Assembly (NCBI GenBank): GCA_043799545.1
Contig: JAZDNO010000026.1
Coordinates: 64,001 to 128,000 of the forward strand
Length of the DNA: 64,000 bases
Reading direction: 5' to 3'
Source: Methanobacteriota archaeon
GTDB lineage: Archaea; Thermoplasmatota; Thermoplasmata; SG8-5; DAIRED01
Under the pieces are notes generated by a model, which searched no databases, was not told where the DNA came from, and saw only the letters and a program-made list of their open reading frames with translations. The position numbers were made by a program, and so were the translations under genes. This document shows positions 58,781 through 64,000 of the stretch, piece by piece (the first letter of the stretch is position 1; each line of letters opens with the position of its first letter).

Positions 58781-59077
58781 TCATTCGTAAAGCGTGAAGA
58801 GTTCGTCGTCCCCGCCCACGTCGAAGAGCCCCATCCTCGCCCCGCAATCGAGCCAGCCGTGCGCGTAGTTCACGCACGCGAACGCGTTGACCAGGTCGCC
58901 GGCTTCCCTGAAGTGCCTGGCGTCTTTGAAGTACGCCGTCGCCATAGCCATGAAGTCGTCCGCCAGCTTGCGGTTGAAGGAGCGCTCCGGAGCCGCCAGC
59001 TTAATTTTCGAGAGGGCTCTCTGAGTCTTCGCCAGATAATCGTCGAGGTGCTTTTCCGTGATTCTGTCTGAAGGCAT
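58781..59077 (-). CDS. DUF357 family protein
   Basis: AYFKDARHF...GDLVNAFACVNYAHGWLDCGARMG. Confidence 0.9.
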   Translation of the reverse strand: MPSDRITEKHLDDYLAKTQRALSKIKLAAPERSFNRKLADDFMAMATAYFKDARHFREAGDLVNAFACVNYAHGWLDCGARMGLFDVGGDDELFTLYE

Positions 59078-59642
59078 GCAAAATCGGCAAGCGCTTCGCC
59101 CTTAATAACGCATCGGCGCGGGCGTTTAGCCTGTCGAATACGTCCGGGGTCCATCCCTCCGCAGCCAGGTGCTTCCGCCTGTCGCGCCAGGCCGAGAAGG
59201 CGTAGAGCGCGAGCAGCAACGCGTAGGCCGAGAACACGACCGCCGGGGTGCCCCATGACCATCCCTGGAGCTGCACGCCCGGAAGGACTGGATAAAGGAC
59301 GCGCGTCGTGAAAGTGCCCTCGTGGACCGGAATATCCACGAGGATGTGCAGCAGCCAGGCCAAGAGCGCGGGGAGCAGCCGGGGCCGCACCCTCCAGACA
59401 ATAGCGGCCACGATTCCGAACACGAGGAGGCTGTGGAACAGGCGGTATACAACGAGTAACGACTGCGGGACTGTCGCCATGGCGTCGGCGTAATTCACGC
59501 TGGCCGTCACGTAGAAGAACAGGTAGAGCTCTATGAGCAGGAAGCCCAGGTCCGGCAGGACCGAGAAAACCAGGGCCTCGTCGCGCCACCGCTCGTCCCT
59601 CGCGTAGAGATTGGTGAACAGCAAGTGGAATATCGGGTCCAT
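59001..59642 (-). CDS. Membrane-bound metal-dependent hydrolase-like protein
   Basis: H near the N-terminus, SVLPD, FHSL, LHILVD; 77-nt overlap with DUF357. Confidence 0.75.
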   Translation of the reverse strand: MDPIFHLLFTNLYARDERWRDEALVFSVLPDLGFLLIELYLFFYVTASVNYADAMATVPQSLLVVYRLFHSLLVFGIVAAIVWRVRPRLLPALLAWLLHILVDIPVHEGTFTTRVLYPVLPGVQLQGWSWGTPAVVFSAYALLLALYAFSAWRDRRKHLAAEGWTPDVFDRLNARADALLRAKRLPILHAFRQNHGKAPRRLSGEDSESPLEN

Positions 59643-59738
59643 CGAAAGGAAAATATGGATTTTCTAGCGTAAATAATGATTGGTAGGGGTTTTGTGAATG
59701 GTGACCCGTCCATCTATCATCTGATTTAGAGCCGCTGT

Positions 59739-59920
59739 ATCTACGACTCTCAACGAAGTACTAGCATGGTTGATTCTACAAGAGAGTCGATGAATCAATC
59801 CTCTATAACTTTGATAGACTCTCCGCAGAATCTACGACTCCCAGCAATATACCAGCATAGTTGATTCTGCTTAGCGAGTCCGTGAATTAATCTTCAATGA
59901 CTTTAATGGACTCGCCGCCA
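59739..59920. repeat. Two degenerate ~91-bp tandem units (56/57-bp hairpin plus herA 3'-end copy)
   Basis: ATCTACGACTC at 59739 and 59830; AGCAT(G/A)GTTGATTCT in both; 59795-59824 encodes GESIKVIED* on the minus strand, like herA 59887-59916. Confidence 0.85.
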
Positions 59921-61389
59921 TGTTTCGTCTCCCTCGCCCTCACCTCGACTATCATCGGGAATCCGAGGTTCCCCCCGGCGATTAGAGCCATGCCGATGGG
60001 GAGGCGCTGGATCTCGTCGTCCATCCCCTTGGTCAGGCCCTCAATGGACGAAGTCACGGCCTTCAGGTCGAGCGGGTTCGTTATCTTGAGTATGAGCTGT
60101 GTGTTGCACTGGCTCAGGACGGATTTGTCCACGCGCGCAGGCCGCTGGGTGATTATGCAGAGCCCCAGGCCGAACTTGCGGCCTTCGGCCGCTATCGTGC
60201 GGATTATCTTGCTGCACGCCTTGACCTCGCCCTGGGGGCAGTAGTTGTGCGCTTCCTCGAACAAAACCATCATCGGCGGGACCTTCCCCTCCTTGCTCAG
60301 CTCATAAAGAGCCGTGGCCAGGCGGTTGACTATCATCTCGGAGATGTCCGCGTGCACCCCCCTCATGTTGAGGATGGTCGTCATCCCCTTCTGGACGATC
60401 TCGCTTATCTTCGTCCCGTTGGCCGCGAAGATGTCGATTTCCTTCAAATATTGCAGGTCGGATATCAGCGTGCCGCAGTCCACGTCCTCGTTCGCGTCCA
60501 GTATGTTGACCAGGTCGTCGATGGTGAAGTTCGGCTTGGCTGTCTTCAGGGCTTCGATGGCGCTCTTTAGCGTGGGAAGGACGTGCTTGATGTCCTTGAC
60601 GTTGAGCAGCGAGAGCAGCTCCCTGGCATCCATGTTCGCCAGCGTGAATTTCAAAGGCTTGGCGTGCGGGTTGGCCTTGGTGTTGGGGGAGAACTCGACA
60701 ACCTTGTCCTTGTAGCCCCTCGGCGTCACGCCGAAGCGATGGGTCGTCGCGTCGCTCTTGCCGCTCTGGCCGAGCGTGGAATATTCGCCGTGCGGGTCCA
60801 CGATGACGACCGTGACGTTGTGCTTCATCAGCTCCTCGATAACCACGCCGCTGATGTAGGACTTGCCGCCGCCTGTCTTGGCGAGGATGCTCATGTGCTT
60901 GTTGACGAGCGTGTTGATGTCCAAAAACACCTGGAGGTCGTGCCCTTTCAGCAGCCCGACGTAAGCGCCGACCTTCTCTCCAGCCTTCAGCCCCAGCACC
61001 TGCCGTATCAATGAGTCCTCGGCCTTGAAAACCAGCTCGCCGGCCCGGACGGGCGTTCCGGGGCTCTGGAGAAGGTTGCGCTCGTCCCTGTACCCTATGA
61101 CGCTCACGCTCGCCCTGACCTTCTCGTTTATCGGCATCGGTTGCCCGCTCGCCAGGCGCATGGCCCGCGCCTCTGAGAGGTCGCTGTGGCGCTCGACCTC
61201 CATGATTTGGCAGAGCATGTTCCCGTAGCTCTCGTGCTTCACCTGGACGTAGTCCATGCGCTCCAGCGGAGCCGTGACGCTGCAGCTGAAATCCTGCGTA
61301 CCTATCTCACCGTAGACTATCCCCACTGGTTCCCCAGCTTCCGAAGAAGATTGCTCCTGAACAGTATCCGACGCAGCATCCACGCGCAT
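59887..61389 (-). CDS. herA: HerA-family ATPase (HAS-barrel-like N-terminus), no nurA adjacent
   Basis: HMSILAKTGGGKSY, FEEAHNY, EGRKFG, TQRP, SQCNT. Start near 61389 (TATA at 61406-61413), not 61677. Confidence 0.88.
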   Translation of the reverse strand: MRVDAASDTVQEQSSSEAGEPVGIVYGEIGTQDFSCSVTAPLERMDYVQVKHESYGNMLCQIMEVERHSDLSEARAMRLASGQPMPINEKVRASVSVIGYRDERNLLQSPGTPVRAGELVFKAEDSLIRQVLGLKAGEKVGAYVGLLKGHDLQVFLDINTLVNKHMSILAKTGGGKSYISGVVIEELMKHNVTVVIVDPHGEYSTLGQSGKSDATTHRFGVTPRGYKDKVVEFSPNTKANPHAKPLKFTLANMDARELLSLLNVKDIKHVLPTLKSAIEALKTAKPNFTIDDLVNILDANEDVDCGTLISDLQYLKEIDIFAANGTKISEIVQKGMTTILNMRGVHADISEMIVNRLATALYELSKEGKVPPMMVLFEEAHNYCPQGEVKACSKIIRTIAAEGRKFGLGLCIITQRPARVDKSVLSQCNTQLILKITNPLDLKAVTSSIEGLTKGMDDEIQRLPIGMALIAGGNLGFPMIVEVRARETKHGGESIKVIED

Positions 61390-61501
61390 CCCATCCTGCT
61401 GTCTTGTATATAACGAATCTCGGATAAAAAGGTTTTCATGCATTGGGGGCGAAGGAATAAATACGGTCTCGCGGTATCTAGAAATGGACATGGGTGACTG
61501 C

Positions 61502-64000
61502 ATGAGGTTCAAGGGATTCATCGCGGCGGCAGTTGGTTTCTTGGTGGTGTCGAGCGCTCTGATGGCCGTGCTTCCCGGGGGGGTGGCTGGCGCCGTCTGG
61601 AGCACGAATACCGTTGTAAACGAGCCGTCGGGCGCGCAGCAGAAAAACCCGAGTATGACCGCCGGTCCGGACGGCATCCTTCATTTCGCCTGGGTCGACA
61701 ACCGGAACGGCGGCTCCGGCTCGGACATATTTTATTCGATGAGCGGAGATAACGGCACATCGTTCCTTTACCCCAACATAGAGGTGAGCGAGGGGCGGCT
61801 GAGCGGCTACACCCATGGAGCGCCAGACATCGCCGTGAACGCCAGCGGAACTGCCTTCGTGGCCTGGCACGAGTTCAACGGTCAGGACACGAACGTCAGG
61901 GTGGCGAGGAAAACCCCGTTCGCGGACGCGTTCCAGTCCCTGGGCATAATACACAAGGTCACCGACGGTAGCCAGGATTCGCCGTCCATCTCGTCGGGCG
62001 GAAGCAGCCTGGCAGTCGCGTGGAAAGACGGGCGGTCGGACAACCTCGTGAGGATTTGGGACTCGGAGACAGGGGCGCTAGTAAAGGACTTGGCCGGCCA
62101 CAACGGCTCTGTGACCTCGGTGGCCTTCTCCCCCGACGGAAAGAGGCTCGCCTCGTCCTCGGAGAGTGGAATAATAAAAGTGTGGAACGCGACCAGCGGG
62201 GCCCTCCTTTCAAACCTGACGGGGCATTTGGACATCGTGACCTGCGTCGCATGGTCGCCGGACGGCTCAAAGCTGGCATCCTCGTCATGGGACCACACGG
62301 TCAAGATATGGAGCGCCGCAGACTACGCCCTCGTCAAAACTTTGAGCAATTCGAACAACCCCGTCAACTCCGTAGACTGGTCTCCCGACGGCGCGCTCGT
62401 CGTCGCGGGCTACAACGGCGAGGGGATATACACCTCGGAGATTCCCGGGTTTCCGAACAGCCATTTCAACGTGACAGTCTGGAACGTCGCGTCTGGGACC
62501 GCCACCCTGGTGGGCGTGCATAACAACTCGGTCAACTGCGCGAGGTTCTCGCCAGACGGCGCGCACATCGCTTCTTCGTCCGGGGCAGTGAGCGACTCTT
62601 CGCTTGACAACTCCATCAGGATATGGAATGCGGGCTCGCTGTCGCTGGTTAGCGTAATCAACGTCGCGGGCGGATACGTCAATTCCGTGTCGTGGGGCCA
62701 AAACGGCATGCTCGCCGCGGGCGTCGAGAACGGTTCGGTGACGACCTACTGGAACCCCGCCATCAACAACACCGCCAGGGGGTTCATGTCCGCCGGGCCC
62801 GGAGCAGTGAAGGCCACAGACTGGCTGGCAAGCGGTCAGCGCATAGCCACCGGCGGGATGTCGGCGATAGCCACGGTCTGGAACTCAAGCTCGGCCGCGC
62901 GGGTCGCCGCGACGAGCCGAGGCGCCAACACCATACACGGGGTCTCGCTCTCGCCCGACGGGCGGTTCCTGGCGACGGGCAGCGGCAACTCGGCGCTATA
63001 CAGGCGCTCGGAGAGCCATGTCTACTGCGCGGTATCTGTCAACGGTGGCGTCACCTGGCCTATCCAGACGAGGGTGGACTCGGTGGGCGCGTTCGAGCTC
63101 GGCTCGCCAAGCGTCAGCATCGGCGCGAACGGCGACATAGGCGTTGCCTGGTGGGAGGCCAGAAACGGGGGCACTCCGAACATTTACTATGCGAATTCCA
63201 CGGACGGCGGAGCGACCTTCGCCCAGGACACGAGGCTGAGCGGCGGGGGCGGAGCCAAATTCGATCCATCCATTGCGCTTGATGAAAAGGGGGTCGGCCA
63301 CGTCGCCTGGCACGATGAGAGGGACAAGGACATCACGGGCTACCTCGACCGTTTTGACATCTACTACGGCAGGTCGGATTCGCCGGGGGTCAACGTGCGC
63401 GTGAACGCAACCGCCGTGGATGTCCAGCAGCAGAGCGCCGACATAGACGTCTCCAAGAACGGCAGCACCGTGGCCATCGTTTGGGTGGAGGACAGCGTCT
63501 CCATCAAGGTCGCGCAATCGAACGACGGTGGCGCCTCCTTCGGACTGCCCTCGGTAATCAGCGACACCGCGGTGGGCGTGCGCTACCTGCCGACGGTTGT
63601 CATCGCAGGAGGACATGTCCATGCGGCGTGGGAGGATTACAGGCGGGGAGACTCCAACGTCTACTTCTCCAGCACTGTCCAAAGCGACGAGTGGCCGCCA
63701 TCGGTCATAGGCGTTCAGCCCGCGCCAGGGGCGGCGACTGTCTCGGCCTACTCGCCCATCGTCGTCAAGTTCTCCGAGCCCGTGAAACGCACTTCCTTCG
63801 AATCGGCGTTCCGGATATCCGACGGCACCACTGCATGGACGGCCGAGAACCTGGTAATGACCTGGTCCGCTTACGGCAATTCCGTGTCCTTGGAGCCGTT
63901 TGGCTGGCATCTGTCGTATTACAGGACGTACACCGCGACTATCTCGGCAACTGTGGAGGACATGAAATCCAACGTAATGGCCGCGCCCTATTCGTGGACT
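61502..64000 (+). CDS. Secreted BNR-like propeller protein with nested WD40 propeller and Ig-like domain (3' partial)
   Basis: Not in ORF track (no stop in window). ATG 61502, RBS GGTGA, signal peptide; SxDxGxTF/W repeats; GH...VAFSPDG...IKVW WD40 repeats; IVVKFSEPV Big_5 motif; open to 64000. Confidence 0.9.
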   Translation, partial: MRFKGFIAAAVGFLVVSSALMAVLPGGVAGAVWSTNTVVNEPSGAQQKNPSMTAGPDGILHFAWVDNRNGGSGSDIFYSMSGDNGTSFLYPNIEVSEGRLSGYTHGAPDIAVNASGTAFVAWHEFNGQDTNVRVARKTPFADAFQSLGIIHKVTDGSQDSPSISSGGSSLAVAWKDGRSDNLVRIWDSETGALVKDLAGHNGSVTSVAFSPDGKRLASSSESGIIKVWNATSGALLSNLTGHLDIVTCVAWSPDGSKLASSSWDHTVKIWSAADYALVKTLSNSNNPVNSVDWSPDGALVVAGYNGEGIYTSEIPGFPNSHFNVTVWNVASGTATLVGVHNNSVNCARFSPDGAHIASSSGAVSDSSLDNSIRIWNAGSLSLVSVINVAGGYVNSVSWGQNGMLAAGVENGSVTTYWNPAINNTARGFMSAGPGAVKATDWLASGQRIATGGMSAIATVWNSSSAARVAATSRGANTIHGVSLSPDGRFLATGSGNSALYRRSESHVYCAVSVNGGVTWPIQTRVDSVGAFELGSPSVSIGANGDIGVAWWEARNGGTPNIYYANSTDGGATFAQDTRLSGGGGAKFDPSIALDEKGVGHVAWHDERDKDITGYLDRFDIYYGRSDSPGVNVRVNATAVDVQQQSADIDVSKNGSTVAIVWVEDSVSIKVAQSNDGGASFGLPSVISDTAVGVRYLPTVVIAGGHVHAAWEDYRRGDSNVYFSSTVQSDEWPPSVIGVQPAPGAATVSAYSPIVVKFSEPVKRTSFESAFRISDGTTAWTAENLVMTWSAYGNSVSLEPFGWHLSYYRTYTATISATVEDMKSNVMAAPYSWT

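Follow-up and report, generated by a model that had tools for sequence, protein, structure and literature searches.

Two-hairpin units of about 92 nucleotides at the 3' end of an archaeal herA gene support stacked gene-end replacement

Site-specific integrative elements can duplicate the end of the gene in which they insert, as phage 21 and e14 do in icd. Integrated elements of archaea also occupy the 3'-distal parts of protein genes (PMC6563490). The locus described here, the 3' end of a herA gene in the window (the whole 64,000-nucleotide stretch of DNA that was analysed), resembles these systems in that a replacement 3' end keeps the target intact, the old end persists as a direct repeat and re-use of the site gives rise to arrays. 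Unlike integrative elements, however, the herA units carry neither integrase nor cargo and no large element is seen at the site; each unit measures ~92 nt, is made of two hairpins, is homologous to the others over its full length and varies in number like a minisatellite. While silent-only orphan gene ends normally mark integrated viruses or plasmids, here they are left by non-coding units of ~90 nt, and such arrays could mislead searches for integrated elements that are based on att sites.

Bacterial REP/BIME hairpins, which have RAYT (Y1) transposases, are a second point of comparison (PMC2817692, PMC3116915). As in REP/BIME, the second hairpin of the herA unit belongs to a set of short extragenic hairpins with a conserved stem, located just after genes, dispersed and sometimes in tandem, in a genome that also contains Y1 genes; unlike the REP/RAYT pairs, this family has few copies, flanks no Y1 gene of the genome under study and resides in an archaeal host. 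We know of no REP that carries or duplicates a gene end. Homology-facilitated illegitimate recombination, a process known from bacterial transformation, offers a third comparison: as proposed for herA, a homologous anchor and a short GC-rich microhomology joint serve to add foreign DNA, but the process is known from bacteria and not from these archaea, and alone it does not explain joints located at the feet of hairpins. Finally, the succession of a tail, a small palindromic insert and a second tail is also seen around miniature inverted-repeat elements (MITEs) lying in long target repeats, two cases of which, in genus g3 and in the genome under study (a 95-nt MITE), are described below; in contrast to those cases, the herA units of the genome under study contain neither MITE. 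With a length of 13-176 nt, the repeats that flank these MITEs far exceed ordinary target duplications, and in the older repeats all differences are silent.

The genome under study (G000) and a second genome (G001) are of the same genus, called g1 here. The herA product harbors the Pfam domains DUF87 and HerA_C, which identify it as a HerA ATPase. Its longest frame counts 596 residues from the first ATG, whereas homologues are called at 500-502 aa, and the true start probably lies near 61390. The ~94 leading codons of that frame (61396-61677) have no counterpart in homologues and are probably untranslated. At the other extremity, the protein end, ...RPRET.HGGES(V/I)K(V/I)IED, is kept to the last residue in ~38 relatives (class Thermoplasmata), and the alignment of the product with solved HerA chains extends up to or into this tail. 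Sulfolobus HerA has a conserved brace at the C-terminus that keeps its hexamer together (PMC5715905). The C-terminus of HerA sits at or beside this conserved brace and must stay intact; being native, conserved and near the brace, the tail is thus important to the protein and not supplied by a foreign element, and a foreign source of the tail peptide is ruled out. The next gene, which forms the far edge of the variable region, encodes a putative membrane protein whose YdjM match is weak and was obtained with the G001 orthologue; the same gene order was found again among relatives. The features of the region are collected in Table 1.

Table 1. Features of the herA 3' region, in window coordinates.
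Feature	Coordinates	Strand	Description
herA open frame	59887-61677	minus	596 aa counted from first ATG
Working tail, GESIKVIED-stop	59887-59916	minus	last nine codons and stop; third positions AT-rich
Unit 1, 92 nt	59827-59918	minus	from GCGG within the His-Gly-Gly codons to the base preceding the next GCGG
Hairpin 1 of unit 1	59873-59916	minus	5' arm in tail codons, stop in loop, 3' arm just past stop
Hairpin 2 of unit 1	59825-59870	minus	3' arm reaches the junction with unit 2
Unit 2, 91 nt	59736-59826	minus	displaced copy; aligns to unit 1
Orphan tail, GESIKVIED-stop	59795-59824	minus	92 nt offset, other frame than herA
Hairpin 1 of unit 2	59782-59823	minus	kept
Hairpin 2 of unit 2	59734-59779	minus	partly broken
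Third GCGG junction	59732-59735	minus	tail absent here; G001 has a GC3-rich third tail at the same point
Rest of intergenic DNA	59643-59731	minus	holds a conserved promoter-like block upstream of the next gene (alignment with L180)
Downstream gene, YdjM-like membrane protein	59001-59642	minus	ORF, 213 aa; far edge of variable region

Two 30-nt stretches, one being the in-frame end of herA and the other the orphan tail, both translate to GESIKVIED-stop. They differ at seven positions, six of which are third codon positions and the seventh the middle base of the stop (TAA versus TGA); the chance that seven random substitutions are all silent is P ~5e-6. The first-pass annotation had read this pair as a recoded duplicate of the herA 3' end without a start codon, with AT-rich codons unlike those of the gene body, a related segment after each tail and a GCGG at each junction, and every one of these points was confirmed: all differences are silent, no ATG, GTG or TTG lies in frame after the upstream stop of the orphan, the GC3 of the herA body is 0.81 against a GC content of 42% for the units, the two whole units stand head to tail and align with ~75% identity over their full length, and GCGG recurs at all three junctions. 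A fainter third copy that it placed at ~59704-59738 fared less well, as that stretch does not align as a tail and only the third GCGG is left; the third tail carried by G001 at the same point suggests that a third tail may have been deleted in G000. No further copy of the whole unit was found in the 2.06-Mb G000 genome (BLAST, nhmmer), and Tandem Repeats Finder reported nothing at the herA units, whose copies are ~75% identical. A diversity-generating retroelement was also considered and rejected, since the adenines of the downstream copy hold only two of the seven differences, a pattern that is not adenine-specific.

In G000 (59795-59890) and G001 (L133:5368-5465), no stop interrupts the shifted frame between the end of the first tail and the orphan tail; in the relative L182 (L182:1559-1657), the frame is open in phase beyond a TGA stop. 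The frame between tails is thus open in three of four intervals, which is not significant (P ~0.06, arithmetic), and the sequence before the herA stop contains no slippery site. Expression of the orphan tail through frameshift, readthrough or a small ORF was rejected, there being neither a start codon nor a slippery site.

Each ~92-nt unit folds as two hairpins. In hairpin 1, the Gly-Gly-Glu-Ser-Ile codons pair with the stretch that follows the stop, and the loop consists of the last codons and the stop itself; its arms vary among units and genomes yet remain complementary, in other words they covary. As a unit runs from one GCGG to the next, both of its boundaries lie at hairpin feet. When folds were compared with those of shuffled sequences, the signal in G000 was strong for unit 1 (z = -4.1) and weak for unit 2 (z = -1.0); across genomes, the first (working) units scored -4.1, -3.8, -2.5 and -7.0 and the orphan units -1.0, -0.5 and -2.5. 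GANTC occurs ten times over the 183 nt of the two units (59736-59918), more densely than anywhere else in the genome (P 3e-9). GANTC was rejected as a required motif because the L182 and L180 units are without such sites, which makes GANTC a by-product of the hairpin stems.

Hairpin 2 is found outside the herA locus. Its exact pattern matches five times in G000, twice in G001 and once in G019, and not at all in the other 18 relatives searched or with reversed-pattern controls; the same stem with differing loops occurs at four further G000 loci and one further G001 locus. The family comprises, in G000, the five exact matches and two diverged copies. Multiple extragenic copies with a conserved stem and a variable loop are the mark of REP-type sequences, and hairpin 2 is, on these pattern matches, a small, dispersed, genus-specific REP-like family. 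At the end of the thermosome gene (L218:1500-1600 in contig C1 of G000 and L214:1500-1600 in contig C27 of G001, minus strand), the stop lies in the loop of a hairpin formed by the tail and the post-stop sequence, and a hairpin of the herA hairpin 2 family comes next; this arrangement is kept in G000 and G001, and the thermosome gene end is not duplicated. A stop-enclosing hairpin followed by a family hairpin thereby appears as a recurrent 3' module in the genus. A known RNA family was rejected as the identity of the unit, Rfam having returned nothing relevant at permissive thresholds.

Close HerA relatives were found by protein search and their contigs were then compared, the sample holding five genus-level layouts; a pattern scan of metagenomes for close relatives gave a best match of 61% identity. 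Relatives were placed on a resolved HerA tree, apart from L186, which was placed by sequence identity. L186 (96% amino acid identity to G000 over the last 150 residues compared) has no unit and ends in a GC3-rich native tail. L180, L184 and L185, the sister of G000, carry one unit of a third type, and the basal L188 has one tail of the same type as these three. L182 and L187, which come from two different samples and are identical in sequence, have two tails; G000 has two units; G001, of the same genus, has three tails, the last one GC3-rich; and L183, also of the same genus, has a working tail followed by at least 4.5 near-identical 92-nt copies up to the contig end. The number of units among genus members is 0, 1, 2, 3 or at least 5; variable unit number at the herA 3' ends of relatives is what the first-pass annotation had proposed to look for, and there is no common two-unit layout. 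In L183, the repeat has an exact 92-nt period and the tail part of the amplified copies is degenerate. An assembly artefact is unlikely because the units share no long exact word, independent assemblies contain similar arrays and two different samples gave one identical layout; chance was rejected as the source of the duplicate tail on account of the silent-only differences, the alignment of the units and the layouts in relatives.

The comparison also indicates which tail came first. L182 and L187 use, as their in-frame working tail, the type that is orphaned in G000 and G001, and the L182 working tail differs from the tail of G001 orphan unit 2 at two silent sites, with a spacer that is also of the same type. 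The most distal orphans (G001 unit 3 and L182 tail 2) are similar to the GC3-rich native tail of L186. Since orphan types are at work in relatives and distal orphans are native-like, the orphans are former working ends, and new units have therefore been added beside the gene body. The claim that this is a stack of ~92-nt units, each restoring the gene end while the distal copies are displaced, is supported by these tail types and by the varying unit number.

Unit types do not track the HerA tree. Between G000 and G001, the first-type units have diverged to the same extent as the species themselves, so that a recent common source is not evident; within G000, unit 2 is conflicted, its spacer being closest to unit 1 and its tail closest to the other type. 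Spacer identity between units ranges from 0.42 to 0.76, with both hairpins in common. G000 and L180 are 87% identical throughout, too uniform for a recombination breakpoint between them to be located at the junction.

Change in the tails is almost entirely silent. In a set of nine tails drawn from five genomes, variation affects all nine third positions but only one of the 18 first and second positions. If the drift rate is assumed to equal half of the third-position divergence of the herA body, ~11-12 changes would be expected at the first and second positions of four old orphans over the time since the species split, against one observed (arithmetic); free drift of non-functional copies is not what these four orphans display. 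Either the orphans were displaced well after the splits, which would need independent or horizontal additions, or they are still selected or constrained.

Orphan gene ends are not limited to herA. All G000 ORFs of at least 120 aa were scanned for a second copy of their last nine residues within 450 nt downstream, and herA plus three more protein genes were recovered, the inserts of these three ranging from 31 to 134 nt. In the gene of an aCPSF1-like RNase (G000 C24, ~70270-70340; L189/L192), the end ...PMNLETIRLK-stop is followed 37 nt downstream by an orphan MNLETIRLK-stop; the five changes between the two are all silent, and the orphan occurs only in G000 among 12 relatives. Four silent changes are private to this orphan, which adjoins the conserved flank, and the new tail is nearer to the tail of G001, which implies that the new tail was not copied from the resident one. 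In the gene of a RadB-like ATPase (G000 C13, 14537-14668; L190/L204), the orphan lies 72 nt downstream and differs at 12 of 30 bases, with two residues changed; the working tail is AT-rich, the GC-richer orphan abuts the conserved neighbouring gene and the spacer closes with a hairpin directly against the orphan. Both genes have single tails in G001 and other relatives. In the third gene, encoding a deaminase (G000 C12, 94040-94260; L191), 57 nt are duplicated with four third-position differences, the orphan lies 134 nt downstream and the spacer is the 95-nt palindromic MITE, which is present in at least 20 copies in G000, direct repeats of 13-66 nt flanking 4 of its ~21 copies. Junctions fall at GC-rich microhomology in herA and aCPSF1. 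The herA units sit at a repair helicase that needs its C-terminus, and at least three other genes of G000 bear similar marks.

G014 and G015, two genomes of genus g3 in a sister family, carry a herA tail duplication at the same codon, and the insert between the tails is a non-coding, multi-copy MITE of ~290 nt. The terminal hairpin of this MITE is found on both sides of a Y1 transposase gene in G015 and G014, and just downstream of one in G010. About one third of the full-length copies lie between long direct repeats of host DNA; at other copies the flanking direct repeats measure 69-176 nt, and one repeat pair duplicates the first codons and the TATA box/promoter of a guaA-like gene in two species. 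The MITE also comes in nested size classes with a common terminal hairpin (L016, L009, L006, L068-L083, L165-L167). The g1 hairpins could not be linked by homology to the hairpin of the g3 MITE: a covariance model of the g3 hairpin did not detect them, and a profile search likewise gave no match.

Stacked gene-end replacement is therefore supported at herA, and integrase att scars are not. As to mechanism, we give roughly even chances to a recombination hot spot at the herA stop, where segments containing a full gene end would be stacked before the resident end and later lost. A short, hairpin-bounded segment with a complete gene end would insert directly before the resident herA end, shifting the old end downstream as an orphan, and units could later be lost again. 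One unit combines hairpin 1, in which the final 9-10 codons and the stop are joined by an arm just past the stop, with the REP-like hairpin 2, and the need to keep the HerA C-terminus intact would allow only additions that bring a full tail to survive. Joining may rely on the GCGG microhomology of the hairpin feet, through illegitimate or unequal recombination; this would at times take place in cis, which would produce near-identical copies like those of L183, and at times involve a diverged allele of a related lineage. By the latter route, neighbouring tails would differ silently only, and by as much as orthologues do. The unit types that depart from the HerA tree and the aCPSF1 new tail that is no copy of the resident one argue for stacking of diverged alleles, and illegitimate or unequal recombination, partly with diverged alleles, is our preference over the transposase and slippage routes considered below. 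Against this recombination reading, no donor allele or transfer event is seen directly, the tail and spacer of G000 unit 2 point to different relatives, the first-type units are diverged at the species level, it does not explain why two families, g1 and g3, share the base at which the joints lie, the AT-rich codons of the working tails are not accounted for and the layouts number five at the genus level.

In an unlikely rival reading, the unit would be a miniature hairpin transposon that travels as single-stranded DNA through the action of a Y1 (HUH) transposase, either IS200/IS605-like or RAYT-like. The enzyme would cut after the GCGG at the foot of each hairpin pair, a unit being gained by insertion after the GCGG within the His-Gly-Gly codons and lost by seamless excision, which would expose the next tail; excision of this sort, if frequent, would hold the orphans under selection. 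Unit ends at hairpin feet with the same tetranucleotide, a dispersed hairpin 2 with conserved stems and variable loops, the presence of PF01797 (Y1) genes in G000 and G001, and the g3 herA tail duplicated at the same codon around a MITE whose terminal hairpin borders a Y1 gene are all in line with this proposal. However, the whole unit is confined to herA in G000, and the flanks of the G000 and G001 PF01797 genes contain no hairpin like the unit or hairpin 2, so that the RAYT-type arrangement of a Y1 gene between hairpins is seen with the unrelated g3 MITE alone, whose covariance model misses the g1 hairpins. Moreover, known IS200/IS605 elements, to our knowledge, do not make target duplications.

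In-place tandem duplication by replication slippage at the hairpins, with selection maintaining orphans that remain in use (for instance where the first unit is often lost precisely, or by a route at the level of RNA or translation), we consider quite unlikely. The locus does share features with minisatellites: copies stand head to tail, their number varies (stacked units number one or two each in G000, G001 and L182) and the L183 copies are near-identical with their exact 92-nt period. The first and second codon positions of the orphans are also far more conserved than drift allows, and the frame between tails is more often open than closed, though not significantly so. Against this reading, the G000 orphan has no start codon, lies in another frame and follows a stop without slippery site; tails that differ at most third positions should seldom recombine with each other; and the degenerate tails of the amplified L183 copies indicate that orphans are not always kept.

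The proposal of the first-pass annotation, that integrase-borne elements entered the herA 3' end, each with a replacement tail, and decayed to att remnants (here taken as ~60 nt), is very improbable: although archaeal elements do integrate at such sites and re-use them in arrays, the replacement tails are atypical in codon usage, tyrosine recombinase genes exist in the genome and close relatives differ in whether the site is filled or empty, as expected of att sites, the ~115 related herA loci (79 + 35) contain no integrase-bearing or other large insert or full element and no second tail beyond a few hundred nucleotides, their inserts being solely units of 92-96 nt and the g3 MITE, a search of viral contigs gave no orphan herA tail, the units are uniform in size and homologous throughout instead of sharing an att core around unrelated cargo, the L183 tandem copies are near-identical, the like scars at three other genes all have short inserts and the tail is native to HerA.

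Beyond the recombination reading, we tentatively raise the idea, somewhat unlikely in our judgement, that the hairpin elements are gene-end cassettes, that is, mobile or recombinogenic two-hairpin modules that carry spare last codons of the host gene. If so, they would enter and leave the coding ends of essential genes (herA, radB, aCPSF1) harmlessly, displaced ends would stay readable because the gain and loss of units would outpace decay, and the cassettes would represent a hitherto undescribed form of mobile or semi-mobile DNA. More broadly, if the findings at herA are general, short hairpin or MITE-like DNA could safely remodel the ends of essential genes in archaea, and orphan ends would keep a record of past exchange between related lineages.

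Some further differences were observed around these loci. In L186 (Ga0394877_0156762), which is without units and without the YdjM-like gene, a DUF357 gene begins 4 nt past herA, so the 3' flank of herA differs by whole genes among near relatives. In G001 (L133:5560-9060), the herA units are separated from the YdjM-like gene by a 1135-aa M6-peptidase/CARDB gene on the opposite strand; imperfect direct repeats of ~25 nt border this gene, which G000 does not have at that place. Downstream of a Y1 gene in both genomes (L169/L168; G000 C25, G001 C138), a partial tRNA-like copy precedes a full tRNA-like gene.
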